The translations under genes were made by a program, and so were the position numbers. A stretch of 64,000 nt of DNA, from the sequence record LC739539.1, one strand, 5' to 3'. Below, in pieces: positions 15,653-48,039 of the stretch; the first letter of the stretch is position 1; every line of letters starts with the position of its first letter. The stretch is from Escherichia phage phiWec190. The notes beneath the pieces are model-generated. The model searched no databases. It was not told the origin of the DNA and saw only the letters and a program-made list of their open reading frames with translations.

Positions 15653-15700
15653 AATTCCTCCTATATTAGTAAGAAACCTCCCGAAGGAGGTTCATTGGTA

Positions 15701-16675
15701 TTAAGCGGTAGCTTCTTCTTTTTCAGGGAAGATGAAACTTGCAATCACGCCCAGGGCCAGAGTACCAAGCACGATATACATGCTGATCGTCGGGTCAATA
15801 TGCGCTGGCAGGAAGCTCACTTTTGCGTGCAGCGTTTCTGCAAACGGGTGATACATCAGTTTCACACCAACAAACACCAGGACTGCGATAACTGCTTTCT
15901 CCAGGTGAACCAGATACTTCAGGGCCACACTAAGAACAAAGAACAGAGCACGTAAGCCTAAGATTGCACAGAGCATCGAAGAGAATACAAGCAGTGGTTC
16001 TTGTGTCACTGCAATTACAGCCGGAACCGAGTCTACTGCAAAGATCACATCTACCATTTCCATCACGAACACACAAACCAGAGCCGGAGTTGCTACACGA
16101 ACACCATTCTTAATCGTGAAGAACTTCTCACCATCCATCTGATCCGATACTGGGAACAGTTTACGAACGACGCGGGTAGCCCAATGTTTAGAGTAATCAA
16201 CTGCTGCGTCATCGTCTTGTTTAAACAACATCTTCGCCGCACAAAAAAGAATCACAATACCGAAGAAAATATTAACATACCATCCAATACTTAGCAGATA
16301 AGTCCCTGCTGCTACAAACACACCTCGGAAGACAATCGCACCTGCAATACCCCAGAGTAGAATTTTGTGTTGTAAGTGTGTGCTCTTAATCCCGAAACTG
16401 GAGAACACTGCTACAAACACTACCAAGTTATCTACCGAGAGCGACTTCTCTAACACATACCCGCTCAAGAACAAGTTTGCAAAATCTGCGCCGTGCTGGA
16501 AGTATACAAAACCATAGTAGGCTAAAGACACACCAATCCAGAAGATTGACCAAGCCACAGCAGATTTGAAAGAGATTTCCTTGTTCTCACGATGCCCGAA
16601 AAAGTCAATACCGATGGACAGAACAAGAATACCTACCAACACCACTACATCAATAATGGGGAAACCAAGTTGCAT
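15701..16675 (-). CDS. terC: TerC-family integral membrane protein
   Basis: 324 aa, multi-pass; LSVDNLVVF and AVDSVPAV signature motifs. Confidence 0.85.
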   Translation of the reverse strand: MQLGFPIIDVVVLVGILVLSIGIDFFGHRENKEISFKSAVAWSIFWIGVSLAYYGFVYFQHGADFANLFLSGYVLEKSLSVDNLVVFVAVFSSFGIKSTHLQHKILLWGIAGAIVFRGVFVAAGTYLLSIGWYVNIFFGIVILFCAAKMLFKQDDDAAVDYSKHWATRVVRKLFPVSDQMDGEKFFTIKNGVRVATPALVCVFVMEMVDVIFAVDSVPAVIAVTQEPLLVFSSMLCAILGLRALFFVLSVALKYLVHLEKAVIAVLVFVGVKLMYHPFAETLHAKVSFLPAHIDPTISMYIVLGTLALGVIASFIFPEKEEATA

Positions 16676-16693
16676 TATTTTCTCCTTTCTCTT

Positions 16694-16752
16694 TGCGGGG
16701 AACCACTCCCCGCCTCATGTGATACATCTTACTCTATTCTAAAACTTTGTCA
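16694..16752 (-). promoter_or_regulatory. cassette-type promoter plus leader stem-loop upstream of terC
   Basis: Minus strand reads TTGACA-16nt-TAAGATGTATCACATGAGGCGGGGA-GTGGT-TCCCCGC then RBS and ATG; same architecture as the 35.8-47 kb array. Confidence 0.55.
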
Positions 16753-16756
16753 ACAC

Positions 16757-16978
16757 TTATTTTGAAGAACTTGAGGAAAAGATCCCACGTAGTACAGCCA
16801 TGATAAATGCCACACACACCACAGTCCAGAAGGTGATAGGAACAGTGATATCTGTGTGACCCATCATTTCAACAACGTAGTTATAAGCCAGCAGCAGAAG
16901 CCATGCTGGAATCATACTGATCAGGAAAGCCAGAACAAACACGATAACTACTGCCAGAACACCTGCAACAACACCCAT
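16757..16978 (-). CDS. small membrane protein (73 aa)
   Basis: Almost entirely hydrophobic. Confidence 0.45.
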   Translation of the reverse strand: MGVVAGVLAVVIVFVLAFLISMIPAWLLLLAYNYVVEMMGHTDITVPITFWTVVCVAFIMAVLRGIFSSSSSK

Positions 16979-35738: not shown

Positions 35739-35847
35739 GGTGTCGCCCTTTCTTTGTTGTGCGCCCTGGTTGGCGCGGTAGAAAGATAATAGCCCTTTCC
35801 TTTATATATAGCAAGCAAAAAAGAAATGAAAAAGATTGAAAAAGTGG

Positions 35848-35904
35848 TTGACGTTCGCCAGGTGGCGGCGTACTATTCATCACGTAGGGCGGCAATGGTG
35901 CTGC
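35848..35904 (+). promoter_or_regulatory. cassette promoter plus leader stem-loop (copy 1)
   Basis: TTGACG 35848-53, 17 nt, TACTAT 35871-76, leader CACGTAGGGCGGCAATGGTGCTGC (stem 35889-35904). Confidence 0.6.
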
Positions 35905-35925
35905 TCACTATCTGGAGTTAAGATC

Positions 35926-36123
35926 ATGGCAACATTGCACATAGTAGCGAAAGCAGGACAAATCAACGTAGTGGTAAACGGCTTTACTGAATTTAGTCAT
36001 CCTCAAGATGATCATGAAACGGTGCTATCTTTCATTGATTCCCTGTTAGAAATGGGAGTCATTACAGAAGACCAACACGCTACTAAATCCGAACGTGTCC
36101 GCCGTATCGCGGGTGAAGAATAA
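35926..36123 (+). CDS. small hypothetical protein (65 aa)
   Basis: Track ORF trimmed to first Met after leader; RBS GGAG. Confidence 0.5.
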   Translation: MATLHIVAKAGQINVVVNGFTEFSHPQDDHETVLSFIDSLLEMGVITEDQHATKSERVRRIAGEE

Positions 36124-36129
36124 AAAGTA

Positions 36130-36190
36130 TTGACAATACGCAACAACCTGATAAGATGTATCACGTAGAGCGGCGGAATGGTCCACCGCT
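36130..36190 (+). promoter_or_regulatory. cassette promoter plus leader stem-loop (copy 2)
   Basis: TTGACA 36130-35, 16 nt, TAAGAT, leader GTAGAGCGGCGGAATGGTCCACCGCTC. Confidence 0.6.
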
Positions 36191-36213
36191 CACAACTAAG
36201 AGAGATTATCATC

Positions 36214-36486
36214 ATGGCATCATATAGCGCAACAATGATCGTAACTGGCACCACTGGCAAACCTATGAGCGGTGGCGGATCTTTCGCTAACATCAATATT
36301 GACGGGCGCTTATCCCTGGACGCAGCGATCGCCGTAGCGCGGGAAACATTTAAGAAAGAATGTAATTTCAACAAGCAAGATTATTTAGGTTTCGCTATTG
36401 AAAAAACCGCGCGCTTTGTGGATTATAAAAGCCCGAAAATGGTTGATACTACATTAACAGCAAGACAAGTAAACTTTTTGCTGTAA
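36214..36486 (+). CDS. small hypothetical protein (90 aa)
   Basis: Track ORF trimmed to MASYSATM... after RBS AAGAGAGA. Confidence 0.5.
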   Translation: MASYSATMIVTGTTGKPMSGGGSFANINIDGRLSLDAAIAVARETFKKECNFNKQDYLGFAIEKTARFVDYKSPKMVDTTLTARQVNFLL

Positions 36487-36496
36487 GGGGGCTAAC

Positions 36497-36757
36497 GTGC
36501 ACTTTCTTAAGGTATGCGGGAAGATCATAGCCTTTCGTAATGAGGAATTTTATAACCTTGCTCGTTATGTTATGATCTACCCTGGCAAGGTATATAAAAA
36601 CAGTCCGACAAGTTACACTATTTACAATGTGCTATCAGGTAAAACCACGGAGATCATAAAAGGAGGGGTGAGAGATTATCGTACATCTTTCTATCCTTGC
36701 CGTGATTCCGCCAGCTTATTTTTTGTGTGTGAAATGATTGTTAAAAGGGGTGTATAA
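36497..36757 (+). CDS. hypothetical protein (86 aa, GTG start)
   Basis: ORF track; RBS AAGGGGG. Confidence 0.45.
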   Translation: MHFLKVCGKIIAFRNEEFYNLARYVMIYPGKVYKNSPTSYTIYNVLSGKTTEIIKGGVRDYRTSFYPCRDSASLFFVCEMIVKRGV

Positions 36758-37314
36758 TGGGGCGCGAATATGTGATCCAGTCCTGGGTAAAACATGACGT
36801 TAATGATCCGCGCATTATACCGGACGACATGATCGATCATGCTCCTGGCTATAGTGGCGAGCAAGTAGGCAACAGATCGGCGCGTAGTCATGGGAATACC
36901 AAAACACGCAGCGATCGCCCTGGTTGGCTGGCAAATGGTAACGCTGACATTGCAAGCGCCGCAGATGATAGCGACGGCGCGAAAGATAATCCGCTGTACA
37001 AGGTAGATCCGGCTTTTCGTGTCCTGGATGAATACCCCAGCAAGATAGCGGCGCTTGATGCCGCGCTCGAAAGTAAGCGCATCACCTGGACGGCGTACAG
37101 TACTGCAAAAAGCGTATTAGATGGTAAGCTGATCCAAGCTGAAAGGAAATTGGCCAAAATTGCAGCCATAGCCCAGGAGGAAGACCAGGAAGAGGAAGAC
37201 GATCACGCGGTTGAGTGCATCACCTTTGATCACTTCCTTCCAGTCTTTGAGGCATCACAAGAAGAGAAGAAAGAAGCCGAAAAAAATTATCTTTATTTTG
37301 ATGATTTAGGTTGA
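36757..37314 (+). CDS. hypothetical protein (185 aa) with acidic C-terminus
   Basis: ORF track; stop/start overlap with upstream gene. Confidence 0.5.
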   Translation: MGREYVIQSWVKHDVNDPRIIPDDMIDHAPGYSGEQVGNRSARSHGNTKTRSDRPGWLANGNADIASAADDSDGAKDNPLYKVDPAFRVLDEYPSKIAALDAALESKRITWTAYSTAKSVLDGKLIQAERKLAKIAAIAQEEDQEEEDDHAVECITFDHFLPVFEASQEEKKEAEKNYLYFDDLG

Positions 37315-37368
37315 CAGGTAAAACGTGATCACTTATAGTTAACTCATAGGGCGGCAACGGTGCCGCTC
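37311..37368 (+). promoter_or_regulatory. cassette promoter plus leader stem-loop (copy 3)
   Basis: TTGACA 37311-16, 17 nt, TATAGT 37334-39, leader CATAGGGCGGCAACGGTGCCGCTCACAAC. Confidence 0.6.
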
Positions 37369-37388
37369 ACAACCGAAAGGATAGAAAA

Positions 37389-37472
37389 ATGTTTACTACT
37401 TCCCTGTTTTTTGCAATCAATTTTATTCCTGGTTTCCGTGCTGCACTTGAAATCATTCTTTGGACACTGTAA
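37389..37472 (+). CDS. micro-ORF hydrophobic peptide (27 aa)
   Basis: Hand-read MFTTSLFFAINFIPGFRAALEIILWTL right after leader and RBS AAAGGA; not in track. Confidence 0.4.
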   Translation: MFTTSLFFAINFIPGFRAALEIILWTL

Positions 37473-37479
37473 GGAAAAC

Positions 37480-37590
37480 ATGATGATCAAGAAAGAAAAC
37501 AGTTTGACAGTTGGAACGATTAACGCTATTATCTTGGTTGTTCCATTTTGGATCACCGTAGCAGTTATCACAACAATCATTTTCAAGTAA
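37480..37590 (+). CDS. micro-ORF membrane peptide (36 aa)
   Basis: MMIKKENSLTVGTINAIILVVPFWITVAVITTIIFK; in-frame tail of track ORF 37360..37590, whose annotated start lies inside the stem-loop. Confidence 0.4.
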   Translation: MMIKKENSLTVGTINAIILVVPFWITVAVITTIIFK

Positions 37591-37600
37591 GGGGCACACC

Positions 37601-37792
37601 ATGTTTAAAAATATCACTGGCAACGTAGCAACATTGAAAGCAGGTGACAAGGTAGAATTGCACCGGATCACAATGACAGTAGCGCACATTGAAAAAGTGC
37701 CACCGCATCACCGCAAGATCTCGCTAACTTGCAACAAGGGGCGTAACATTACCGCCACATTGCACGAAAAAGATAACGTAGTCATTCTATAA
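37601..37792 (+). CDS. small hypothetical protein (63 aa)
   Basis: ORF track; RBS AAGGGG. Confidence 0.45.
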   Translation: MFKNITGNVATLKAGDKVELHRITMTVAHIEKVPPHHRKISLTCNKGRNITATLHEKDNVVIL

Positions 37793-37802
37793 GGCGGACA
37801 CT

Positions 37803-38084
37803 ATGAGCAAGGTAATTAGTCACGAAAAACTAAGCCCTACCCTATCGATCAGTGAATGCAACGATGGTTATTGGCTATACGATGAAACGCGCGGCATGAA
37901 TTTATCGATGCAAGCGAAAACCGAACAAGCGGCATATGTGCAAGCCCTGGAATATTACCAGCGACGACTACAGGAAGTTGAGAACAATTATAAAAGCCTG
38001 AAATCAAAGGTTGATCACTTTATCAGCCAGGCGGCAGATGACGACGATGATCACTATTGCGAGCGGTGCGGATCATACAGTTAA
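37803..38084 (+). CDS. small hypothetical protein (93 aa)
   Basis: ORF track; C-terminal CERCGS. Confidence 0.45.
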   Translation: MSKVISHEKLSPTLSISECNDGYWLYDETRGMNLSMQAKTEQAAYVQALEYYQRRLQEVENNYKSLKSKVDHFISQAADDDDDHYCERCGSYS

Positions 38085-38092
38085 AAATATCC

Positions 38093-38154
38093 TTGACAAC
38101 GTTTCAAAAAGTAGTAAGCTGTATCACATAGGGCGGCGGAATGGTCCACCGCTC
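38093..38154 (+). promoter_or_regulatory. cassette promoter plus leader stem-loop (copy 4)
   Basis: TTGACA 38093-98, TAAGCT, leader CACATAGGGCGGCGGAATGGTCCACCGCTC. Confidence 0.55.
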
Positions 38155-38174
38155 AAAACAGAAGAGAGAATATC

Positions 38175-38420
38175 ATGAAACACTTATCATCTATCACCAA
38201 TCACAATGAAATCTTTGTTAATGAAAAAGGTTACGCCTGGATTCAGTTAAAAGAGATGAAAAATAACCGTCGTGTAACGGTTGTTCGTAAAATTAAAAGC
38301 AAGCCTTTTAGTAACTTCTCGATTGATACCGTGCGGATCAAGAATGAAGAATACTTGATCGATAGCCAAATCACTTGGAGCTTAACGGCATCAGCCGCCG
38401 CACCATATTTCGCAAACTAA
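38175..38420 (+). CDS. small hypothetical protein (81 aa)
   Basis: ORF track. Confidence 0.5.
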   Translation: MKHLSSITNHNEIFVNEKGYAWIQLKEMKNNRRVTVVRKIKSKPFSNFSIDTVRIKNEEYLIDSQITWSLTASAAAPYFAN

Positions 38421-38431
38421 GAAAAAAACGT

Positions 38432-38488
38432 TTGACACTGTTTAAAATTCTGTTATAGTTTATCACGTAGGGCGGCAATGGTGCCGCC
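38432..38488 (+). promoter_or_regulatory. cassette promoter plus leader stem-loop (copy 5)
   Basis: TTGACA 38432-37, 16 nt, TATAGT, leader CACGTAGGGCGGCAATGGTGCCGCC. Confidence 0.6.
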
Positions 38489-38509
38489 AACAATAAAAAG
38501 GTTATCATC

Positions 38510-38689
38510 ATGGCTATCATTGCAAAAACTGAAATCGTGGGCTTAGATTCCATTCTTCTGACATATAAGGAAACGTTAGGAATGTATGTAGTAACCTATG
38601 GGGATTATGTGCATGAATACGAATATATTGATCTTGCTTTCGAATGTTACATTCGTCAGGTCAATCAAGCCTATAATGATTATCGTTAA
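38510..38689 (+). CDS. small hypothetical protein (59 aa, not in track)
   Basis: Hand-read MAIIAKTEIVGLDSILLTYKETLGMYVV... Confidence 0.4.
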   Translation: MAIIAKTEIVGLDSILLTYKETLGMYVVTYGDYVHEYEYIDLAFECYIRQVNQAYNDYR

Positions 38690-38708
38690 AAGTTTTAGTC
38701 TTGTGCTA

Positions 38709-38761
38709 TTGACAATAGGCGATAGTACAAGCATAATAACTTTTATCGGGAATACTTCCCA
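38709..38761 (+). promoter_or_regulatory. cassette promoter with variant leader hairpin (copy 6)
   Basis: TTGACA 38709-14, 17 nt, CATAAT 38732-37, hairpin GGGAA-TAC-TTCCC. Confidence 0.5.
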
Positions 38762-38786
38762 CTAACCAAAAAGAGAGAGTAAGAAC

Positions 38787-39152
38787 ATGGCTAAAAATAT
38801 CAATGTGTCCGCTTATGCTACCCTGGCTAACACTGCTAAAATCGAACTATCCAGCATTGAAGCAGTGCACATTAGCGCCCGTCGCTGGTTTCAACAGTCC
38901 TACGGTAATACATATTTTTCTTTAAGTGTGGACGTCGAGATCTGCGGTAAATTGATTGAAGTGGTTAACGTTCCGTTTCAATATGGCTATGGTGATCATT
39001 TTGATACCGTCGCCCTGGAAGAATTTAGCAAGGTTATCAACCTTGAAGGCAAAGAATTTTCACGCGGCAGCTATCTTTCCCGTTTTTGCCGTGACAATGG
39101 GATCGCTGTATACAGTCATGCAAGCGATGTTAAGCGTAAAAAAGATTTATAA
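38787..39152 (+). CDS. hypothetical protein (121 aa)
   Basis: ORF track. Confidence 0.5.
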   Translation: MAKNINVSAYATLANTAKIELSSIEAVHISARRWFQQSYGNTYFSLSVDVEICGKLIEVVNVPFQYGYGDHFDTVALEEFSKVINLEGKEFSRGSYLSRFCRDNGIAVYSHASDVKRKKDL

Positions 39153-39158
39153 AAGACG

Positions 39159-39220
39159 TTGACAGCACGAATAAAAAGAGTAAACTGTATTACATAGGGC
39201 GCGGGAATAGTTCCCGCCCC
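39159..39220 (+). promoter_or_regulatory. cassette promoter plus leader stem-loop (copy 7)
   Basis: TTGACA 39159-64, 16 nt, TAAACT, leader ACATAGGGCGCGGGAATAGTTCCCGCCCC. Confidence 0.6.
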
Positions 39221-39241
39221 ACTCAAAGAGAGATTAACATC

Positions 39242-39481
39242 ATGGCTAAATCAAAAATGTTCTTAGGTCACAAAAATAAAAATCATTGGAATGTAAGCCT
39301 TTGGATTAACAACGATGAATCATTGTATCGGTTGGCCCTGGACTTTATTAACGATAGCACTAATCGCAATGATGCGGCCCGTCATATGATGCTATTTTTA
39401 CAAGAGACTGGACAAGATAAGACTCCAGACGGTTTCAAATATAGCACTACTGCGATCCGCGCCGCGATGGTCGGAATGTAA
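39242..39481 (+). CDS. small hypothetical protein (79 aa)
   Basis: ORF track. Confidence 0.5.
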   Translation: MAKSKMFLGHKNKNHWNVSLWINNDESLYRLALDFINDSTNRNDAARHMMLFLQETGQDKTPDGFKYSTTAIRAAMVGM

Positions 39482-39490
39482 TAAAAACAG

Positions 39491-39548
39491 TTGACAACGT
39501 TTTAAATTAGTGTAAGATGTATCACATAGGGGCGACAAGCGCCCCGCC
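39491..39548 (+). promoter_or_regulatory. cassette promoter plus leader stem-loop (copy 8)
   Basis: TTGACA 39491-96, 16 nt, TAAGAT, leader CACATAGGGGCGACAAGCGCCCCGCC. Confidence 0.6.
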
Positions 39549-39568
39549 TAACAGAAGAGAGAAAAATC

Positions 39569-39796
39569 ATGGCTATCAATATTGTTCGCGTATCCGGCAC
39601 CGTTGGCACTTCCCAGGTTATAGCCGTTGTAACAAATAAAAAGATTAATGATGTATGTGAGATCTTGAATAAGTGGGCTATTGCTAATTTTGGGGAATAT
39701 GCGAGCGTTGAGTACATCGAATCTTATCAGGTGCCAACCATCAGCCTGACCGATCTCAACGTTGATCGCCTGTTATGCCTGGACGAATTAATCTGA
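39569..39796 (+). CDS. small hypothetical protein (75 aa)
   Basis: ORF track. Confidence 0.5.
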   Translation: MAINIVRVSGTVGTSQVIAVVTNKKINDVCEILNKWAIANFGEYASVEYIESYQVPTISLTDLNVDRLLCLDELI

Positions 39797-39805
39797 AAAA
39801 GATTG

Positions 39806-39862
39806 TTGACACGGGAAAGAAAAAGAGTAAACTGTATTACGTAGGGCGGCAATGGTGCCGCC
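39806..39862 (+). promoter_or_regulatory. cassette promoter plus leader stem-loop (copy 9)
   Basis: TTGACA 39806-11, 16 nt, TAAACT, leader ACGTAGGGCGGCAATGGTGCCGCC. Confidence 0.6.
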
Positions 39863-39881
39863 AGCAAGAAGAGAGATTATC

Positions 39882-40097
39882 ATGATGGCTAATATCCGCA
39901 CACTGTTAAAAAATGCAAGTCGAGTTTTATTTTCCGATCACGATTATTTCAATAAAGACATTACAGGCGTTAAGAACATCAAAGATGTAAAAAGTGTTAT
40001 GGGTATATATTGCAATGTGAAACGTGTTGGAACTTTTAGCAACAAGGTAGTATATCAGGCAGGGGATTACAATTTTACACTAACAATCTTAAATTAA
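39882..40097 (+). CDS. small hypothetical protein (71 aa)
   Basis: Track ORF trimmed to MMANIRT... after leader. Confidence 0.45.
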   Translation: MMANIRTLLKNASRVLFSDHDYFNKDITGVKNIKDVKSVMGIYCNVKRVGTFSNKVVYQAGDYNFTLTILN

Positions 40098-40100
40098 AGC

Positions 40101-40162
40101 TTGCAATCCCCATAAAATAAAGTAAACTGTATTACATCAAGGCGGCGGAATGGTCCACCGCC
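40101..40162 (+). promoter_or_regulatory. cassette promoter plus leader stem-loop (copy 10)
   Basis: TTGCAA 40101-06, 16 nt, TAAACT, leader ACATCAAGGCGGCGGAATGGTCCACCGCC. Confidence 0.55.
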
Positions 40163-40186
40163 TAACAAAGAGAAGAGGAAAACATC

Positions 40187-40354
40187 ATGATTACTTTTAC
40201 TACCCGTGAAGCCGCTCGCAACGTTGCACGTAAAGTTAACGCCGCCAACCTGGGCGCTACGCTTAAAGCCCCTGTAAAAGATACATCAGGCGCGTGGATC
40301 TTCCCTGGTCTGCGTCATGCTGATAACTTGGGCACGTTAAGCCGTAACAAATAA
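40187..40354 (+). CDS. small basic protein (55 aa, not in track)
   Basis: Hand-read MITFTTREAARNVARKVNAANLGATLKAPVKDTSGAWIFPGLRHADNLGTLSRNK. Confidence 0.4.
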   Translation: MITFTTREAARNVARKVNAANLGATLKAPVKDTSGAWIFPGLRHADNLGTLSRNK

Positions 40355-40368
40355 GGTTAGCCCTTCGT

Positions 40369-40396
40369 AATAGCGCCCCGCTCAATAGGCGCTATT
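40369..40396 (+). other. intercistronic 9-bp-stem hairpin
   Basis: AATAGCGCC-CCGCTCAATA-GGCGCTATT, immediately upstream of RBS for 40435. Confidence 0.45.
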
Positions 40397-40434
40397 GAGA
40401 AGAGAAACCACTTATCACAAAGAGAGAAAACATC

Positions 40435-40656
40435 ATGATCACTTTCGCTATTGTCGCCGTTGTCGCTGGTCAAGTTTACGTGAACGATACATTCACCACC
40501 GAAGACAAAGCAGCAGGAGATATCACCGCCGCTTATAACGAGTGCAAGGAAGTAGGAAGGATGTTAGCGCCTTGCTTCCTTATGAGTGAACGCCAGGACG
40601 GGATCACGGTGTTTACTAACATTGAAACAGGATATCAAATGATAGTAGAAAAATGA
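40435..40656 (+). CDS. small hypothetical protein (73 aa)
   Basis: ORF track. Confidence 0.45.
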   Translation: MITFAIVAVVAGQVYVNDTFTTEDKAAGDITAAYNECKEVGRMLAPCFLMSERQDGITVFTNIETGYQMIVEK

Positions 40657-40718
40657 TTGACAAGTTTTAAAAATCCGGTAAGATGTAACACGTAGGGCGG
40701 CAATGGTGCCGCTCACAA
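40656..40718 (+). promoter_or_regulatory. cassette promoter plus leader stem-loop (copy 11)
   Basis: TTGACA 40656-61, 16 nt, TAAGAT, leader ACACGTAGGGCGGCAATGGTGCCGCTCACAAC. Confidence 0.6.
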
Positions 40719-40733
40719 CAGAAGAGAGACACC

Positions 40734-41087
40734 ATGAAAGCACAAAATGCAATTAAACTTTATATTCTGGCCTCAATTGATTATAGCGAGTATAGCATCA
40801 CAGAAGAGAAAGAGAAGATCGCGGAATTGATGCGACGTTTTAAGAATGAGTACTGGTATCCCTATAACCAAGAATACTACAATCATAACGTTATCAGAGC
40901 AATAGCCTCATGGTTACAAGGTTTACCGTCAGATATCAATATCGCTTTCGAATATTGGGAAGTAGATCGGTTGTTAACATCCTGGGGATACATTAGCGAG
41001 CGTAGCAGCGAAAGCAAGATCCAGAAAGAAAGGGAAAACTATTGGCTATACCTTGCAGGAGTGATCCTTGCACTTTCCCACGAATAA
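40734..41087 (+). CDS. hypothetical protein (117 aa)
   Basis: ORF track. Confidence 0.5.
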   Translation: MKAQNAIKLYILASIDYSEYSITEEKEKIAELMRRFKNEYWYPYNQEYYNHNVIRAIASWLQGLPSDINIAFEYWEVDRLLTSWGYISERSSESKIQKERENYWLYLAGVILALSHE

Positions 41088-41103
41088 AAAGTTTTAAAAG
41101 TAG

Positions 41104-41165
41104 TTGACAGGCATCAAACAATAAAGTAAATTTAAACACGTAGGGCGGCAATGGTGCCGCTCACA
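41104..41165 (+). promoter_or_regulatory. cassette promoter plus leader stem-loop (copy 12)
   Basis: TTGACA 41104-09, TAAATT, leader ACACGTAGGGCGGCAATGGTGCCGCTCACAAC. Confidence 0.55.
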
Positions 41166-41183
41166 ACAAAAAGAGGAAACATC

Positions 41184-41330
41184 ATGAATACATCTAATCG
41201 CGCCGAAAAAATCCAATCTTCCAAAACTCGCGCAGCGTGGAATGAAGAAGTGGTCCGCAAGGGCGACAAGCGCAACAAGACTAAGCGCGACCGCACCGAT
41301 AAACGTGCATGGCTGGACCTGGAAGACTAA
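41184..41330 (+). CDS. small highly basic protein (48 aa, not in track)
   Basis: Hand-read MNTSNRAEKIQSSKTRAAWNEEVVRKGDKRNKTKRDRTDKRAWLDLED. Confidence 0.4.
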   Translation: MNTSNRAEKIQSSKTRAAWNEEVVRKGDKRNKTKRDRTDKRAWLDLED

Positions 41331-41338
41331 CAAAACAA

Positions 41339-41361
41339 GGGCGCAAATAGCGCCCTTTCTT
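41339..41361 (+). terminator. rho-independent terminator
   Basis: GGGCGC-AAATA-GCGCCC then TTTCTT. Confidence 0.6.
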
Positions 41362-41386
41362 ATATCTAACGAGAGGATAACAGCAC

Positions 41387-41572
41387 ATGACCTTAAACGA
41401 GATTAAAACCGCCTACAACGCAACGAACAAAGTAGCAGCCCGTTACCGCGACGAATACGGATTTATTGCGCAAGGCGTGATCCTGGGCTTATCTAATGAT
41501 GGTTTGATTTACATTGATGCTTATCATAACCAGGTTAAACCTGAAAATGTTATCAGTATAAAATATCTTTAA
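41387..41572 (+). CDS. small hypothetical protein (61 aa)
   Basis: ORF track; RBS GAGAGGA. Confidence 0.45.
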   Translation: MTLNEIKTAYNATNKVAARYRDEYGFIAQGVILGLSNDGLIYIDAYHNQVKPENVISIKYL

Positions 41573-41578
41573 AAGTGG

Positions 41579-41638
41579 TTGACACCATAATCAGACCTGA
41601 TAAGATGTATCACGTAGGGCGGCAATGGTACCGCGCTC
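41579..41638 (+). promoter_or_regulatory. cassette promoter plus leader stem-loop (copy 13)
   Basis: TTGACA 41579-84, 16 nt, TAAGAT, leader CACGTAGGGCGGCAATGGTACCGCGCTC. Confidence 0.55.
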
Positions 41639-41654
41639 GTTTGAGGATCAAACT

Positions 41655-41939
41655 ATGGTTAAAGCTAACACGGTGCTACTGTTTTCCCTGGTTAATGATG
41701 CCGCTTACTTGTCCAACATGACGCAAGATGATAGCACATTAACGGCAACGTTTACCGATGGACTTAACCGAGTGATCATCGTTTCACTGAAAACAGGGAG
41801 TAAAGGCTTTTACTCGTTGGCTTATCATTGGGTAACAGACAGCGACGAGACAAGCCAGGACTATAGCGCCCCGTTCCCTGAATCAATGGCACGGGAGATC
41901 ATCGCCGCCGTTGTAAACGATGGTTTATTTACTGCATAA
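41655..41939 (+). CDS. hypothetical protein (94 aa)
   Basis: Track ORF trimmed to MVKANTV... Confidence 0.45.
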   Translation: MVKANTVLLFSLVNDAAYLSNMTQDDSTLTATFTDGLNRVIIVSLKTGSKGFYSLAYHWVTDSDETSQDYSAPFPESMAREIIAAVVNDGLFTA

Positions 41940-41958
41940 AAATAATTTAGAAAAAGGT

Positions 41959-42020
41959 TTGCAATCATTTTGAGATAGTGTATATTTAATTCATAGGGCG
42001 GCGGGAATAGTTCCCAAAGC
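41959..42020 (+). promoter_or_regulatory. cassette promoter plus leader stem-loop (copy 14)
   Basis: TTGCAA 41959-64, 16 nt, TATATT, leader CATAGGGCGGCGGGAATAGTTCCC. Confidence 0.5.
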
Positions 42021-42038
42021 AAGCGAGAGGATAACACA

Positions 42039-42158
42039 ATGAACAAATACACAGTAGAATACACGGTAGAGAATCCGGCAGTATCCGAAGGGCGTAAGAC
42101 TACGATCGCCGTTGGTGTTATCGCTTTCGTTATCACTATCTTATCAATCATCTTATAA
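42039..42158 (+). CDS. micro-ORF membrane peptide (39 aa)
   Basis: Hand-read MNKYTVEYTVENPAVSEGRKTTIAVGVIAFVITILSIIL; C-terminal TM helix. Confidence 0.4.
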   Translation: MNKYTVEYTVENPAVSEGRKTTIAVGVIAFVITILSIIL

Positions 42159-42168
42159 GGTGCACACC

Positions 42169-42348
42169 ATGAAAACAGTAAACGTTATCAGATCATCAAA
42201 CATCATTAAAGAGATCGCCCTTGCCACTGGTATTGAGATCGAGGAAGTGATCGCGCTCAATCTTACAGAAAACGATCTGCGCAACTATGAAGCGGAAAGC
42301 GTGAAAGCAAGTGGCGCGGTCCTGGCATATAATCCGGCTAACAAATAG
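42169..42348 (+). CDS. small hypothetical protein (59 aa)
   Basis: In-frame tail of track ORF 42112..42348 from MKTVNV... Confidence 0.4.
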   Translation: MKTVNVIRSSNIIKEIALATGIEIEEVIALNLTENDLRNYEAESVKASGAVLAYNPANK

Positions 42349-42408
42349 TTTGACAAGCTGAATCAACCTGATAAGATGTATCACATAGGGGCGACAAGCG
42401 CCCCGCCT
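42349..42408 (+). promoter_or_regulatory. cassette promoter plus leader stem-loop (copy 15)
   Basis: TTGACA 42349-54, 17 nt, TAAGAT, leader CACATAGGGGCGACAAGCGCCCCGCC. Confidence 0.6.
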
Positions 42409-42428
42409 AACAGAAGAGAGAAAAAATC

Positions 42429-42707
42429 ATGACCATCGTTAAATTAACAACCGAAGAAATGAAAACAATGTTAACCACTAATTTACAAAATTGGAAAATT
42501 GGTGTTGACGTTGAAACAGTGTGCAAGTTGAACGACAAACTAACACCGGACGACATTGAAACGATCATCCGTGCAGATTTCTATGATGCTTTATACGATG
42601 ATTCCACAGTCCTTGAAACGATGTTGGATAACGCTTGGATCAATCCCGATTTGGCGGCTTATGGTCATCTTGCCTTTGAAGCCATCCATAATGTTTATAA
42701 TCGTTAA
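42429..42707 (+). CDS. hypothetical protein (92 aa)
   Basis: ORF track. Confidence 0.5.
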   Translation: MTIVKLTTEEMKTMLTTNLQNWKIGVDVETVCKLNDKLTPDDIETIIRADFYDALYDDSTVLETMLDNAWINPDLAAYGHLAFEAIHNVYNR

Positions 42708-42717
42708 GGGGGATAAC

Positions 42718-42849
42718 ATGAATCCGAAAGATATGCAAGCATGGAAAGGGTACGACGATCTAAGCGCCTTGCGCAATAAGTCAAGCCGTAACCTTAGACG
42801 GTTGGAAGCAAAGAAAAAGAAAAATATTAAGGGGGTGCACCATGTATAA
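42718..42849 (+). CDS. small basic protein (43 aa)
   Basis: In-frame tail of track ORF 42556..42849 from MNPKDMQAWKGY..., RBS AAGGGGG. Confidence 0.35.
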   Translation: MNPKDMQAWKGYDDLSALRNKSSRNLRRLEAKKKKNIKGVHHV

Positions 42850-43069
42850 CAATATCATTGCAGATCGTGCCGCTACTATTCGCCCAGGAGATCGGGCGCG
42901 TTTACAGGTTGGCGTTTATCCGTTCCCGTCTTATGACTTCTGCAAGGTAACGGCTATCGAAAACAATCCGTTTGATCCTGACACCGTGATCATCTGGTAC
43001 GAAGGAAGGGGAAACAGATATGAAGATATCTTGGGGCGTGATGAATCCGTAAACATTTTACGCTATTAA
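42842..43069 (+). CDS. small hypothetical protein (75 aa)
   Basis: ORF track. Confidence 0.45.
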   Translation: MYNNIIADRAATIRPGDRARLQVGVYPFPSYDFCKVTAIENNPFDPDTVIIWYEGRGNRYEDILGRDESVNILRY

Positions 43070-43202
43070 CAGCCTGTAAGCTGTACGGCTGTATTACAGC
43101 CTAAAAGGTGTAAGGCAATGCAATCCCCTACCTGATTTAATTAGTGCGCCCTGGCTTATACTGGGGCGTTATACATTGTAGAAAATAATTTTAAAAATAT
43201 GC

Positions 43203-43263
43203 TTGACGCCTGGAACGTTGGCGCGTATAGTTTATCACATAGGGCGGCGGAATGGTCCACCGC
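43203..43263 (+). promoter_or_regulatory. cassette promoter plus leader stem-loop (copy 16)
   Basis: TTGACG 43203-08, 17 nt, TATAGT, leader CACATAGGGCGGCGGAATGGTCCACCGC. Confidence 0.6.
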
Positions 43264-43283
43264 AAAACAGAAGAGAAAACATC

Positions 43284-43469
43284 ATGACTACTTACAAGAA
43301 AACGAAAGAATTGGTAAAAGGCGATCTGGTTAGAAATATCCTGAATGGTAAGTTTTATGCAATGGTATCTATTGAACGTTATCAAACTGGTTACATTGTT
43401 AAACTTGATAGTCGTGACGATGGTTGCGAGTTTTACACTGAATATAATGATCGTCACATAGTCAAATAA
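43284..43469 (+). CDS. small hypothetical protein (61 aa)
   Basis: Track ORF trimmed to MTTYKKT... Confidence 0.45.
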   Translation: MTTYKKTKELVKGDLVRNILNGKFYAMVSIERYQTGYIVKLDSRDDGCEFYTEYNDRHIVK

Positions 43470-43480
43470 ACCATAAACCA

Positions 43481-43497
43481 GGGGCGACAAGCGCCCC
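43481..43497 (+). other. intercistronic hairpin GGGGCG-ACAAG-CGCCCC
   Basis: Same hairpin as in leaders of copies 8 and 15, here without a promoter. Confidence 0.45.
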
Positions 43498-43517
43498 ATA
43501 ACAAGAAAGGTAACAAG

Positions 43518-43700
43518 ATGAAAAAGATTGATTCTTCCCGTGTATTGTGTGAAATTGATGTTATCATCGGCAACGGCACCGGACACCATAAACTGATTAA
43601 GGGTAAGGCTTATCGCCTGGCAACGCTCAAAGCAGATATGCGCCTAACAGCAAGCCAGATCAAAAAGTTTTTTCGCCCCTTGTTGACAACAGCAAAGTAA
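43518..43700 (+). CDS. small basic protein (60 aa)
   Basis: ORF track. Confidence 0.45.
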   Translation: MKKIDSSRVLCEIDVIIGNGTGHHKLIKGKAYRLATLKADMRLTASQIKKFFRPLLTTAK

Positions 43701-43740
43701 GCGCGTAGTATTCATCTTGTAGGGCGGCAATGGTGCCGCC
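43683..43740 (+). promoter_or_regulatory. cassette promoter plus leader stem-loop (copy 17)
   Basis: TTGACA 43683-88 (inside 3' end of previous gene), 17 nt, TAGTAT, leader TTGTAGGGCGGCAATGGTGCCGCC. Confidence 0.55.
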
Positions 43741-43758
43741 GATGGTGAGGGTAATATA

Positions 43759-43896
43759 ATGAAAACTTTCAATGCAACAGCCTCGACAATTGGTTATATT
43801 ATTACAGTGCAAGCCGTGGACCTGGTAGCAGCAGCAAACAAGATTAAAAGAATGATCCCGCCAGGTAGTGAATTTTCCGTTTGGGAAGTAAAATAA
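43759..43896 (+). CDS. small hypothetical protein (45 aa, not in track)
   Basis: Hand-read MKTFNATASTIGYIITVQAVDLVAAANKIKRMIPPGSEFSVWEVK. Confidence 0.4.
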   Translation: MKTFNATASTIGYIITVQAVDLVAAANKIKRMIPPGSEFSVWEVK

Positions 43897-43898
43897 AT

Positions 43899-43961
43899 CT
43901 TGACAGTATTTTGTTTTCTGGTAAAGTGTATCACGTAGGGCGGGGCAATAAGGCAACGCCC
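43899..43961 (+). promoter_or_regulatory. cassette promoter plus leader stem-loop (copy 18)
   Basis: TTGACA 43899-904, 16 nt, TAAAGT, leader CACGTAGGGCGGGGCAATAAGGCAACGCCC. Confidence 0.55.
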
Positions 43962-43979
43962 ATTAAAGAGGGTAGCATC

Positions 43980-44084
43980 ATGTTAGAGAAAATTTTCACG
44001 GTTGCAATAGTTGGCCTGGCGTTATCGGTTGGAGTGGTTGCAACTATGGCTAATATGATCCTATCTTCTCACGGTATCGGTTAA
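43980..44084 (+). CDS. micro-ORF membrane peptide (34 aa)
   Basis: In-frame tail of track ORF 43881..44084: MLEKIFTVAIVGLALSVGVVATMANMILSSHGIG. Confidence 0.4.
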   Translation: MLEKIFTVAIVGLALSVGVVATMANMILSSHGIG

Positions 44085-44094
44085 GGTGAAACAA

Positions 44095-44310
44095 ATGTTC
44101 ACGAACAAAGCAGGCAAAACGGAATTTTTACGCGGCTTACAAGTTGGTAAGCCTGAGATCTGGCATTGCAGCAAGTCCGCACATAACGAAATGAAAGACT
44201 TTACCGCATCGTTGCAACGTGTTAAAATAACTATCACGCAGAAAAAAGCCCTGATAGTGGCAGAAAACGAGATCCCACAGACCATTATCATAATTGAGCG
44301 CACATCATAA
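44095..44310 (+). CDS. small hypothetical protein (71 aa)
   Basis: Track ORF 44086..44310; ATG at 44095 has AAGGTG RBS. Confidence 0.45.
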   Translation: MFTNKAGKTEFLRGLQVGKPEIWHCSKSAHNEMKDFTASLQRVKITITQKKALIVAENEIPQTIIIIERTS

Positions 44311-44325
44311 TTTTATTTATATTGA

Positions 44326-44387
44326 ATAAATAGTATTGACACAGATCACCAGTGTGATAATATTTACCACGTAGGGCGGCAATGGTG
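44326..44387 (+). promoter_or_regulatory. cassette promoter plus leader stem-loop (copy 19)
   Basis: TTGACA 44326-31, 16 nt, TAATAT, leader ACCACGTAGGGCGGCAATGGTGCCGCTCACC. Confidence 0.6.
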
Positions 44388-44412
44388 CCGCTCACCATTT
44401 GGAGTTATAACC

Positions 44413-44814
44413 ATGAACATTACGATCCTTTCTTATACTGACGTTGTTAACATTGCTAAAACTTTCGGCGCTGAAGCCCTGAAATATGCGGTTTCCAATG
44501 GTAATCTGACAAAGGAACAATGCTACCTGATTGGAGGCTGTAAACGTTGGGCGGTGTCTCGCAACATTGAGATCGAAAACGTCAACGATGGCAACACTGA
44601 ATATAGTGTTGATGCCGTTTTCCAGTCGGTTGATTTAGGCGGGATCTATAACACTAATCTGAATGATGTGCGTATCGTTCGCACTGGTTTCGGTGCTTAT
44701 GATGTACCAGTCCGCGAAGCTATGGAGAAAGGTTATATTAATCCGACCATTTTAAATATGATCATGACTGAGACTAAACAGCGTAACGATGCACGGGCTA
44801 TCTTGGGCCTGTAA
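44413..44814 (+). CDS. hypothetical protein (133 aa)
   Basis: ORF track. Confidence 0.5.
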   Translation: MNITILSYTDVVNIAKTFGAEALKYAVSNGNLTKEQCYLIGGCKRWAVSRNIEIENVNDGNTEYSVDAVFQSVDLGGIYNTNLNDVRIVRTGFGAYDVPVREAMEKGYINPTILNMIMTETKQRNDARAILGL

Positions 44815-44834
44815 GTAAAAACTCCAAAAAACTA

Positions 44835-44896
44835 TTGACACGGATCGTCAATATGATAATATTTACCACGTAGGGCGGGAATAGTTCCCGCTTCCT
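44835..44896 (+). promoter_or_regulatory. cassette promoter plus leader stem-loop (copy 20; near-duplicate of copy 19)
   Basis: TTGACA 44835-40, 16 nt, TAATAT, leader ACCACGTAGGGCGGGAATAGTTCCCGC. Confidence 0.6.
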
Positions 44897-44914
44897 GGAA
44901 AAAGGTAAAACATC

Positions 44915-45160
44915 ATGTACCAGACAACTAAAATTGGCAATATCTACCACGACCCGAAAAATTCGCGCGGTATGGCTTGGATCAAAATGCCTAACAACAT
45001 TTGGTATTATGCGTTAAAAGGGAATACTTTGATGGGTAATCGTTGGACCTGGATCAAAGAGAATAACAACATTATCAACGATGAAAAAATCAGCGAAATG
45101 GTAGCAACAGGTAAGGTTGTAAAGGAAGAAAACACCGATCGCGTAACGCGTCAATTCTAA
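44915..45160 (+). CDS. small hypothetical protein (81 aa)
   Basis: ORF track. Confidence 0.5.
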   Translation: MYQTTKIGNIYHDPKNSRGMAWIKMPNNIWYYALKGNTLMGNRWTWIKENNNIINDEKISEMVATGKVVKEENTDRVTRQF

Positions 45161-45163
45161 AAA

Positions 45164-45178
45164 GGGCGGCAACGCCCC
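45164..45178 (+). other. intercistronic hairpin with GCAA tetraloop
   Basis: GGGCG-GCAA-CGCCC between stop of 44915..45160 and RBS of 45200. Confidence 0.45.
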
Positions 45179-45199
45179 ACTATCAGAAAGGAAAAGATT

Positions 45200-45424
45200 A
45201 TGAGTATTGTTAGAATGTTACAAGCTATTAAACTGGCTGAATTGTCGGATCTCAAGGTAGAAATAACTGAATATGATTATGGGGATCTAAGCGTGCATAT
45301 CTTCCCGCTTCCAGTTGATGGCGCTTATGCCTGGTGCTATGCTGATAACTTCCCGCCGGATGACACAAAGGGCGTAACTGACTTTATTTTAAAGTCGATA
45401 GTAGAAAACAGCCAACGTAATTAA
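45200..45424 (+). CDS. small hypothetical protein (74 aa)
   Basis: ORF track. Confidence 0.45.
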   Translation: MSIVRMLQAIKLAELSDLKVEITEYDYGDLSVHIFPLPVDGAYAWCYADNFPPDDTKGVTDFILKSIVENSQRN

Positions 45425-45429
45425 TCAGC

Positions 45430-45445
45430 GGGGCGGCAACGCCCC
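45430..45445 (+). other. intercistronic hairpin with GCAA tetraloop
   Basis: GGGGCG-GCAA-CGCCCC upstream of 45476. Confidence 0.45.
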
Positions 45446-45475
45446 ATTAAACGCAATAGGAAGAGGATAGACAAC

Positions 45476-45766
45476 ATGAAAAAGATGATCGCAGTAGTTG
45501 CCCTGGTTGTTGGTATTAACGCGCCTGTAATGGCTAACGATTTGCCTGAATCGATCACGTTAACCGATATCAACGCAGTAAACCGGATCGGGGTTAATTA
45601 TCGCCTATGCCTTGCCGCTAAAACTTTTAAGGACGGGGAAACAGAATACCACGGATTCGAGGGTGTCCGGTGCGGTGAGCTTGCACGCGACCTTAAGGAA
45701 GATCCAGACCTTGAGGCCATACCGATGACCGTAAACGGTAAAGCTTACGTAAACCGCCAACAATGA
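45476..45766 (+). CDS. secreted/periplasmic protein (96 aa)
   Basis: Signal peptide MKKMIAVVALVVGINAPVMA. Confidence 0.5.
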   Translation: MKKMIAVVALVVGINAPVMANDLPESITLTDINAVNRIGVNYRLCLAAKTFKDGETEYHGFEGVRCGELARDLKEDPDLEAIPMTVNGKAYVNRQQ

Positions 45767-45777
45767 GAAAGGTAATC

Positions 45778-45897
45778 ATGACAATGGGGATCATAGTAGC
45801 AACGCTGGCGCTAATCCCCTTCCTGGTTAAATATGTGCTAATCGGTGTTGTTCTGGTAGTCAGTGACCTATTGGAAACGGTTGGCACCTGGTTTTAA
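45778..45897 (+). CDS. micro-ORF membrane peptide (39 aa, not in track)
   Basis: Hand-read MTMGIIVATLALIPFLVKYVLIGVVLVVSDLLETVGTWF. Confidence 0.4.
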   Translation: MTMGIIVATLALIPFLVKYVLIGVVLVVSDLLETVGTWF

Positions 45898-45909
45898 GGA
45901 GTAATAAAA

Positions 45910-46101
45910 ATGAATGCAGAACAAGTTAGAAAGGTATTAGCAGCGTTGCGTTATCACAACCATAGCAAGGTAAAGAATGATCCTGATTATGTGGATTCAA
46001 GCCTGGAAGAAGACACATTGCAAGCTATAAGCCATATGCAGGAATTGCTTAAGCGTATGACAGAGAAGAACAGATCTGATTATATAGGTGACGAAGTATA
46101 A
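45910..46101 (+). CDS. small hypothetical protein (63 aa)
   Basis: ORF track. Confidence 0.45.
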   Translation: MNAEQVRKVLAALRYHNHSKVKNDPDYVDSSLEEDTLQAISHMQELLKRMTEKNRSDYIGDEV

Positions 46102-46105
46102 AATA

Positions 46106-46168
46106 GCTTGCATGATGTGCCGGATAGTGTAAGATGTATTTCGTAGGGCGGCAATGGTGCCGCTCACA
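46106..46168 (+). promoter_or_regulatory. cassette promoter plus leader stem-loop (copy 21)
   Basis: TTGCAT 46106-11, 16 nt, TAAGAT, leader TCGTAGGGCGGCAATGGTGCCGCTCACAAC. Confidence 0.6.
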
Positions 46169-46186
46169 ACTGGAAGGAAAAACACC

Positions 46187-46390
46187 ATGACTACAGCTAA
46201 CCGCCTGATCGCCGTCCTGAATAAAGCAAAGGCTAACCGCCTGGATGTTCAAATCAAAGAGCAAGCAAATGGCGAGATCCTTGCTACGGTGTCCGATGGC
46301 GGTTATGTATCGGAATCATTTTTATCAGGGAGCTTAGATCATCTTGTTTGGAAATTAGAAATTATCGTGGAGGATATGCAGATCATCTAA
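46187..46390 (+). CDS. small hypothetical protein (67 aa)
   Basis: Track ORF trimmed to MTTANRL... Confidence 0.45.
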   Translation: MTTANRLIAVLNKAKANRLDVQIKEQANGEILATVSDGGYVSESFLSGSLDHLVWKLEIIVEDMQII

Positions 46391-46400
46391 TCTTTACAAA

Positions 46401-46430
46401 ACAGGGCTTGTTTTTGTCCTGTTTTTTGTT
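46401..46430 (+). terminator. rho-independent terminator
   Basis: ACAGGG-CTTGTTTTTG-TCCTGT then TTTTTT. Confidence 0.55.
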
Positions 46431-46564
46431 ATGCTTATTGAACGGGCGGCACTGGCAACGGGGGAGGTAATCACCGGACGACCCCGCTATATATTGATAG
46501 CTAACACCTATCAAACAACAAAACATCAAAGAGATAAACTATCAAATCTTTACAATTCTACCTA

Positions 46565-46623
46565 TTGACACCGGATCACGCTTATATTATTATTTATCAC
46601 GTAGGGCGGGAATGTTTCCCGTC
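46565..46623 (+). promoter_or_regulatory. cassette promoter plus leader stem-loop (copy 22)
   Basis: TTGACA 46565-70, about 17 nt, TATTAT, leader CACGTAGGGCGGGAATGTTTCCCG. Confidence 0.55.
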
Positions 46624-46641
46624 TAATATAGGAATAACACC

Positions 46642-46875
46642 ATGATCGGACAAATTAAAAGCACTAAATCGAACGTTAACGGCAATGTTTCACACTTTAT
46701 CGGTGATAATGAGAGAGGTACACCCTACGCCGCCGTAACCGTTCAACCTGACGGGGATTATTGGTTTACCGTTTATGGATCTTATTCCTTTGGACGTCCG
46801 GCGCATGATAAGATCTTGCAAGCGGTTAAGCCTACAGGGAAGAATATCACAGCAGAAAAATTTTATAAAAAATAG
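46642..46875 (+). CDS. small hypothetical protein (77 aa)
   Basis: ORF track. Confidence 0.5.
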   Translation: MIGQIKSTKSNVNGNVSHFIGDNERGTPYAAVTVQPDGDYWFTVYGSYSFGRPAHDKILQAVKPTGKNITAEKFYKK

Positions 46876-46936
46876 CTTGCTTTATACACCCTGTTAACTT
46901 ATAGTTATTGCGTAGGGCGAGCAATACAGCAAGCCC
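46876..46936 (+). promoter_or_regulatory. cassette promoter plus leader stem-loop (copy 23)
   Basis: TTGCTT 46876-81, 17 nt, TATAGT, leader GCGTAGGGCGAGCAATACAGCAAGCCC. Confidence 0.5.
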
Positions 46937-46953
46937 ACAAAGAGGAAAAGAAG

Positions 46954-47924: not shown

Positions 47925-48039
47925 TCCAAATAATGTTGATAGCTTCCGCCTATGAAAAACCGACACAGAACAAAAATGAATAAATCGCGGTATCGAGCTA
48001 ATCAACCAGCAAACGAATAACCATACCTCCCAGGGCAAC

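Follow-up and report, generated by a model that had tools for sequence, protein, structure and literature searches.

The gene terC of Escherichia phage phiWec190 is preceded on the minus strand by a consensus sigma-70 promoter and a GC-rich leader hairpin which, to judge from their sequence, are a true homologous member of the cassette family situated before the small genes at 35.8-47 kb, and not a convergent likeness. The hairpin of this family is selected as an RNA structure. In its most likely role, as far as can be inferred, the cassette combines an early promoter for sigma-70 with a 5'-proximal hairpin which would protect or insulate the mRNA. All positions refer to the window, i.e. the whole stretch of 64,000 nt that was analysed.

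Sequences compared

Read in reverse orientation, the window is a nearly identical variant of phiWec188 (LC739537.1, 149,831 bp; Stephanstirmvirinae, Phapecoctavirus, phAPEC8-like); except for one insertion of 0.8 kb, the identity amounts to 99.95-99.995%. Beyond the window, the element was searched for in the complete genome of phiWec188 (~150 kb), i.e. in a further 86 kb. The 148 bp at positions 20076-20223 of the window align to both ends of the phiWec188 record, which carries a 148-bp terminal overlap representing either a repeat or an assembly artefact. Just past the array of small genes, a stretch of 1.4 kb (47950-49350) contains no sizeable plus-strand ORFs, is AT-rich (GC down to 0.29), and exhibits a sign change of the GC skew near 48.6 kb as well as scattered AATGATAAyyATTcTCAT-like repeats. 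This stretch looks origin-like; a non-coding block is mentioned in the rV5 paper.

Organization of the terC cassette

From upstream to downstream on the minus strand, the cassette and the gene consist of the following parts:

16754..16767, minus strand: A-rich stretch CTTCAAAATAAGTG, directly upstream of the -35 hexamer, UP-element-like, overlapping the stop codon of an upstream 73-aa ORF
16753-16748, minus strand: -35 hexamer TTGACA, read from the sequence and situated inside the phAPEC8 'host dependent promoter' annotation
16731-16726, minus strand: -10 hexamer TAAGAT, after a 16-nt spacer
16725-16714, minus strand: start-site region GTATCACATGAG; the predicted start is an A or C 6-8 nt past the -10 hexamer, at about 16718-16720
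16713-16707, 16706-16702 and 16701-16695, minus strand: leader hairpin (GCGGGGA, loop GTGGT, TCCCCGC), from folding and covariation
16676..16694, minus strand: purine-rich unstructured spacer with the Shine-Dalgarno sequence AGGAG (16686-16682)
15701..16675, minus strand: terC coding sequence, 324 aa, membrane protein of the TerC/Alx family (Pfam TerC, 1.7e-39; NCBIfam TIGR03718 R_switched_Alx, 320 bits)
15675..15692, minus strand: 3' hairpin AACCTCC-TTCG-GGAGGTT, then TCTTACT, beginning 8 nt past the terC stop codon

A promoter and a leader stem-loop upstream of terC had been reported in a first, sequence-only reading of the window, and every part reads so on the minus strand; the interval given there (16694-16752) holds the elements, but ends one base short of the -35 hexamer (16753). 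An A-rich tract precedes the -35 hexamer in most array copies, too, and TAAGAT is common to 7 of the 19 aligned array copies. After the 3' arm of the stem, the leader continues with AAAGAGAA, AGGAG, and AAAATA up to the ATG (16675-16673). When folded, it forms a single 7-bp hairpin (-14.3 kcal/mol, z = -2.96), with the Shine-Dalgarno sequence and the AUG unpaired. Under sigma-70, transcription begins some 7-8 nt past the -10 hexamer, and the start position given above is predicted by this general rule only. Since terC possesses a true copy of the cassette with a consensus sigma-70 promoter, a transcription start downstream of this promoter is a reasonable prediction.

The family name R_switched_Alx marks its members as riboswitch-linked, whereas the phage terC possesses only a hairpin leader of ~45 nt without a riboswitch match. 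No Rfam family matches the terC leader at E-values up to 10, and none is found in the whole window at the gathering score. A riboswitch or another known RNA family, including the yybP-ykoY (Mn2+) and alx PRE elements, was rejected on account of the missing Rfam match and the shortness of the leader.

Membership in the array family

The array to which the terC cassette was compared is situated on the opposite strand:

35836..46955, plus strand: 22 cassettes of promoter and leader hairpin, each before a small ORF, found by motif and covariance-model searches

The motif ATCACRTRRGGCGG, with up to two mismatches, occurs 20 times in the window, where 1.5 matches are expected and none of 100 shuffled sequences reaches 20; 19 of the matches lie on the plus strand at 35.8-46.6 kb, and one at terC. 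For the pattern of promoter plus leader, 12 matches are found in the window compared to 0.02 expected. A covariance model was trained on the 19 aligned array copies with terC excluded, and was run on the window and on the complete genome. It recovers the terC cassette in full length (model positions 1-89) with 56.6 bits (E = 2.3e-10), which bears out the earlier proposal that terC shares the architecture of the array; the training copies score 56.9-90.8 bits, such that terC is about level with the weakest of them. At E<0.01, the array comprises the 19 strong copies and three more at 40089, 41947, and 46865, which were not part of the training set; these 22 come close to the approximately 23 copies given by the model reader.

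When run on the 86 kb beyond the window, the covariance model yields nothing above 20 bits. Over the full 150 kb, the sole strong copy that is situated elsewhere than in the array is the terC cassette, 19 kb away. The suggestion that the element occurs beyond a single strand or region holds insofar as this minus-strand copy exists, but terC constitutes a single strong exception. A hairpin at composite position 113873, after a strong promoter-like site, has a leader of 71 nt and no model score, and was not counted; the sites 15233, 71795, and 118752 were dismissed as further copies, being chance matches in coding regions or true terminators.

Concerning the degree of similarity, the terC cassette and the array copy c39521 are identical at 82% of 45 ungapped nt, with 12 of the 16 positions of the spacer, a part that is normally unconstrained, included. 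The mean identity between terC and the array copies (0.61) is not below that among the array copies (0.58). Both the agreement with c39521, which extends into the spacer, and these means argue for common descent of the terC copy and the array.

The leader hairpin

For the analysis of covariation, 52 copies were collected by model search of the window, phAPEC8, phi92, and three terC loci from IMG/VR. In these copies, 82.3% of the cells in paired columns can pair, compared to 41-67% after displacement of the 3' partners by 1-3 columns. Changes on both sides occur in seven of the eight pairs, in 36 cells altogether. The covariation score amounts to 0.244, versus 0.143 +/- 0.013 in shuffled alignments (none of 500 reaches 0.244); the slid controls do not exceed 0.094. 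The 52-copy alignment was fitted to the model and as such favours structure, but independent folds of single sequences agree with it. About 50 copies, folded singly, form one hairpin of 7-10 bp each, with -11 to -19 kcal/mol. The arms differ widely among copies and include GGGCGGCA/TGCCGCTC, GAGCGGCGGA/TCCACCGCTC, GGGGCG/CGCCCC, GCGGGAA/TTCCCGC, and GGCGGGAAA/TTTCCCGCC, among others.

The position of the hairpin within the leader was determined in the 23 copies of the window. The first paired base is situated at a median of 7 nt past the -10 hexamer (12 nt at terC), and the end of the stem is separated from the ATG by a median of 18 nt; the region of the Shine-Dalgarno sequence and the AUG is unpaired to a median of 95%. 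The 8 nt past the stem contain at most three T (median 1), and none at terC. In a terminator scan, none of the cassette hairpins was called. An intrinsic (Rho-independent) terminator was ruled out, as no copy possesses a T-tract and the scan detected none of them.

These features bear on a comparison with PeSL (promoter-early stem-loop), a repeated composite motif of ~90 bp in the T4-like phages RB49/phi1, PST, and nt-1 (Arbiol et al. 2010, PMC2839356; Comeau et al. 2014, PMC4122927). The PeSL stem-loop separates the promoter hexamers, overlaps them, or directly precedes them, and is read as a terminator (PMC2839356, PMC4122927). By analogy, the hairpins described here might act as attenuators or terminators of incoming upstream transcription, which would insulate each gene, terC included, while the adjacent promoter restarts transcription. 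The stem-loops of RB49 and phi1 PeSL cut the expression of a downstream lacZ about as much as rrnB T1 does (PMC2839356); furthermore, promoters follow each other at intervals of 300-500 bp in the array, where canonical terminators are very rare, and the scan revealed no terminator between 19777 and the terC cassette, such that read-through from genes upstream may, in addition, transcribe terC. However, apart from the missing T-tracts, a hairpin downstream of its own start would attenuate its own transcript equally, and in true PeSL the stem-loop lies upstream of or inside the promoter. We regard an attenuator role as unlikely.

Not all consensus promoters of the phage are followed by a hairpin. 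Those at 57888, 60448, and 62188 on the plus strand, and at 29394 and 9939 on the minus strand, lack it and have leaders of about 29-38 nt, most of which read (C)ATCAAC...GAGGAG...ATG. Two of the short leaders without hairpin start from consensus promoters that overlap back to back at 29394 (minus strand) and 29398 (plus strand), where the early blocks of the two strands diverge. The conserved ATCAC was rejected as part of the RNA element and is taken as the context of the start site, since promoters without hairpin share ATCA(A/C) past the -10 hexamer. The existence of such promoters also marks the hairpin as a separable add-on, and it implies that more than the promoter would be needed to define a special regulon. 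That terC belongs to the same temporal regulon as the array genes, as had been supposed, might be presumed from the promoter type alone. The same consensus promoters with and without hairpin provide a natural comparison, by which the share of the hairpin in early expression could easily be tested.

terC loci of related phages

Relatives of terC from IMG/VR and from GenBank phages were compared. Promoter, hairpin, and Shine-Dalgarno sequence precede terC with the same spacing in four diverged lineages, whereas the stems are of five unrelated kinds; two of these are alleles within the Phapecoctavirus lineage. The terC hairpins are:

phAPEC8 and the window: GCGGGGA-GTGGT-TCCCCGC
ESCO13, ESCO5, Schickermooser, and ECO340P2: GCGGGGAA-TAG-TTCCCCGC
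phi92 and the loci L005/L006: GCGGAGGA-TTG-TCCTCCGC
locus L007 (TerC 68% identical): AGGGAGAG-ATAGG-CTCTCCCT
locus L008 (TerC 70% identical): AGAGGGAG-ATAGG-CTCCCTCT

Only in the most distant locus (L009, TerC 60% identical) are promoter and hairpin both absent. In ECO340P2, a different gene is situated upstream of terC, and homology to the window starts at the -35 hexamer; between the window and the phi92-type phages, it starts only at the Shine-Dalgarno sequence. These two borders suggest that the block of promoter and hairpin is an exchangeable module. In phi92, gp172 (a 'putative stress protein') has a related promoter without hairpin in front of it (2983-3056, minus strand, 26.8 bits); this site is found a few kb downstream of terC, near gp178, a 'toxic anion resistance protein'.

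The 3' hairpin after terC is kept with covarying arms in six of six lineages, mostly with UUCG or UCCG loops. It has a T-rich tail, with a T-tract that is weak in this genome, and is either terminator-like or a stabiliser of the 3' end.

The array-type hairpins are more conserved in sequence than would be needed for their pairing only. On the contig that carries L007, the region L022 (13713-19830; flanking ATPase 66% identical) still possesses array hairpins of the form GCGGG...AATGG...CCCGC, and the GGGCGG 5' arm together with an AAUGG-like loop thereby persists in the array of this lineage. The terC hairpin of the same lineage, AAGGGAGAG-ATAGG-CTCTCCCTT, is unlike its own array hairpins. The assumption that the terC hairpin always tracks the array type of its own genome, as expected for a lineage-specific factor, was discarded, as the two differ completely in L007/L022.

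The persistence of the GGGCGG arm and the AAUGG-like loop at such a distance is not explained by a purely structural role. The sequence could be kept beyond structural need by a binding factor, or by horizontal exchange or gene conversion of cassettes. In the former case, the hairpin might be the binding site of a putative phage or host protein that exerts a coordinated control over translation, decay, or antitermination of every early mRNA with such a hairpin, including that of terC. Such a role would agree with the conservation of the GGGCGG arm and of AAUGG-, AAUAG-, or AGUGG-like loops in the window, phAPEC8, phi92, and the L022 lineage, with the fixed position of the array-type hairpin relative to start and Shine-Dalgarno sequence, and with the restriction of the hairpin to a subset of early promoters. 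However, the terC orthologues have unrelated stems with differing loops (GUGGU, UAG, UUG, AUAGG), the terC hairpin of L007/L022 is wholly unlike the array hairpins of that genome, and gene conversion together with horizontal exchange could yield the same conservation; a factor acting in trans seems rather improbable to us. We assign a similarly low probability to a broader reading, by which the hairpin would exceed a passive 5' cap and be the cis-element of a dedicated post-transcriptional regulon (a putative factor reading the GGGCGG/AAUGG type on ~23 early mRNAs and jointly setting their fate, with terC recruited in this lineage by gaining an array-type cassette), or, equally, the cassettes would be a PeSL-like mobile regulatory module outside the T4-like phages.

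Recombination between cassettes

The single large difference between the window and phiWec188 is bounded by two cassettes of the array:

42434..43232, plus strand: 0.8-kb module, present in the window and absent from phiWec188, between the cassettes c42380 and c43234

The module contains ORFs of 92 and 75 aa (42429-42707 and 42842-43069). The cassette that phiWec188 possesses at this site is a hybrid. It is identical to c42380 up to and including the hairpin, and identical to c43234 once the shared AACAGAAGAGA...ATCATG is reached. This places the crossover within the leader, past the hairpin but before the Shine-Dalgarno sequence, and the junction of the indel is situated inside the two leaders. 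Gene indels by recombination between copies are likewise described for PeSL in T4-like phages (PMC2839356, PMC4122927). In the early region of therapeutic coliphages, recombination between cassettes explains one mechanism by which genes are gained and lost.

Since the cassettes demonstrably recombine, and since array copies of one genome are alike (up to 89% identity over 45 nt), the hairpin might be considered a functionless passenger that was copied with the promoter by duplication and gene conversion. This would hardly account for a pairing that survives many changes on both sides of the stem and that is kept at terC in four lineages without a shared stem sequence. Both observations require selection for structure, and a mere passenger appears quite unlikely.

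Proposed function

The reading that we hold to be probable on balance is a joint one: the terC element is a genuine copy of the repeated early-expression cassette and makes terC a self-contained transcription unit, the 5' hairpin would act in cis on its own mRNA, and the cassettes serve as patches of homology. Being downstream of the -10 hexamer, the hairpin should occupy the 5' end of its own transcript or a position close to it. The host sigma-70 RNA polymerase would start 6-8 nt past TAAGAT, and the transcript would open almost at once with the 7-bp GC hairpin. If the start lies 7-8 nt past the -10 hexamer, a predicted unpaired 5' tail of 4-5 nt precedes the hairpin at terC, compared to 0-3 nt for most array copies. 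The unstructured purine-rich stretch with Shine-Dalgarno sequence and AUG would come next, and the conserved 3' hairpin just past the stop codon would end the message. In cis, the 5' hairpin would make the 5' end less accessible to RppH and RNase E, and would prevent interfering structure at the ribosome-binding site; strong early expression independent of the context would be the outcome. The cassettes furthermore act as homology patches for the recombination by which small genes are gained or lost.

Stem-loops at the 5' terminus stabilise E. coli mRNAs, e.g., those of ompA and papA; the primary literature on this is cited in PMC3997798. On the other hand, the scanning of RNase E is hardly obstructed by a simple internal (orthogonal) stem-loop (PMC11194081), such that a role as stabiliser needs an essentially 5'-terminal hairpin. 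The same study speaks against the idea that a non-terminal hairpin could rescue the stabiliser model as an obstacle to scanning. The tail predicted at terC may exceed the length at which the 5' end would really be protected.

Comparison with existing annotations and known systems

A search of the literature on Phapecoctavirus, Stephanstirmvirinae, and rV5-like phages yielded no transcript map and no earlier description of the hairpin. The terC promoter itself is already annotated in phAPEC8 (JX561091.1; region 99.4% identical), where the same 39 nt before TerC are given as 'putative host dependent promoter determined with MEME'; in this respect, the find at terC is one more copy of a repeated element. 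The features designated 'putative promoter determined with PHIRE' in that record correspond to the 20-mers of the array hairpins (e.g., 48257-48276 and 45713-45732, GTAGGGCGGCAATGGTGCCG). The hairpin is not recognised as such there, no PHIRE feature is placed at terC, and the link between terC and the array is not drawn.

Taken literally, the PHIRE features would make the conserved 20-mer a phage-specific promoter, and the record does place them on the hairpin. PHIRE, however, merely reports over-represented 20-mers, and those in question form hairpins with compensatory changes, lie ~10 nt past a consensus sigma-70 -10 hexamer and only 20-25 nt before the start codon, and are not conserved in sequence at the orthologous terC sites. 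A phage-specific promoter is therefore highly improbable. Given the covariation and the position just downstream of consensus sigma-70 promoters, the label is almost certainly a misreading, and the public annotation is to be corrected such that the 'PHIRE promoters' of phAPEC8 are leader hairpins.

In the leader of T7 gene 10, a hairpin comes first and is followed by an unstructured enhancer and the Shine-Dalgarno sequence. Similar to this leader and to those of ompA and papA, the cassettes exhibit a short GC-rich hairpin on or close to the predicted 5' terminus and then an accessible ribosome-binding site; at terC, a 3' hairpin additionally closes the message. Unlike in ompA and papA, the predicted 5' tail at terC would exceed with its 4-5 nt the few nt that are tolerated for protection.

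Morons, a concept of Hendrix and Juhala, are autonomous units of promoter, gene, and terminator in phage genomes. Equally to these, terC has a promoter of its own as well as a 3' hairpin, and the genes next to it on the upstream side vary between relatives. There are, however, differences: the phage is lytic, such that expression from a prophage does not apply; the T-tract of the 3' hairpin is weak; and terC is found in all relatives that were retrieved through homology to this gene or to the region upstream of it.

The organization of the cassettes is in many respects similar to that of PeSL. Both have an AT-rich tract, a consensus sigma-70 promoter, and a GC-rich stem-loop, followed by Shine-Dalgarno sequence and ATG. 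At terC, TTGACA-16-TAAGAT has the AT-rich CAAAATAAG upstream, as is likewise found in the array copies, a stable stem-loop lies inside the repeated motif, and the Shine-Dalgarno sequence and the start codon close the motif at its 3' end. Both are clustered before small ORFans in a hyperplastic early region, in which recombination between copies causes indels; this applies to the 22 array copies, whereas the terC copy is situated before a gene away from the array.

Despite this general similarity, there are fundamental differences. The stem-loop in the phage studied here lies 7-12 nt downstream of the -10 hexamer, in its own transcript, and lacks a T-tract. The phage belongs to the Stephanstirmvirinae and is not T4-like, and one copy serves a conserved metabolic or membrane gene of 324 aa, terC, outside the hyperplastic region. 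PeSL-like cassettes, so far described only in T4-like phages, thus have a counterpart in phages of the phAPEC8/phi92 type, in which the hairpin is situated on the transcribed side of the promoter and one cassette serves the conserved auxiliary gene terC.
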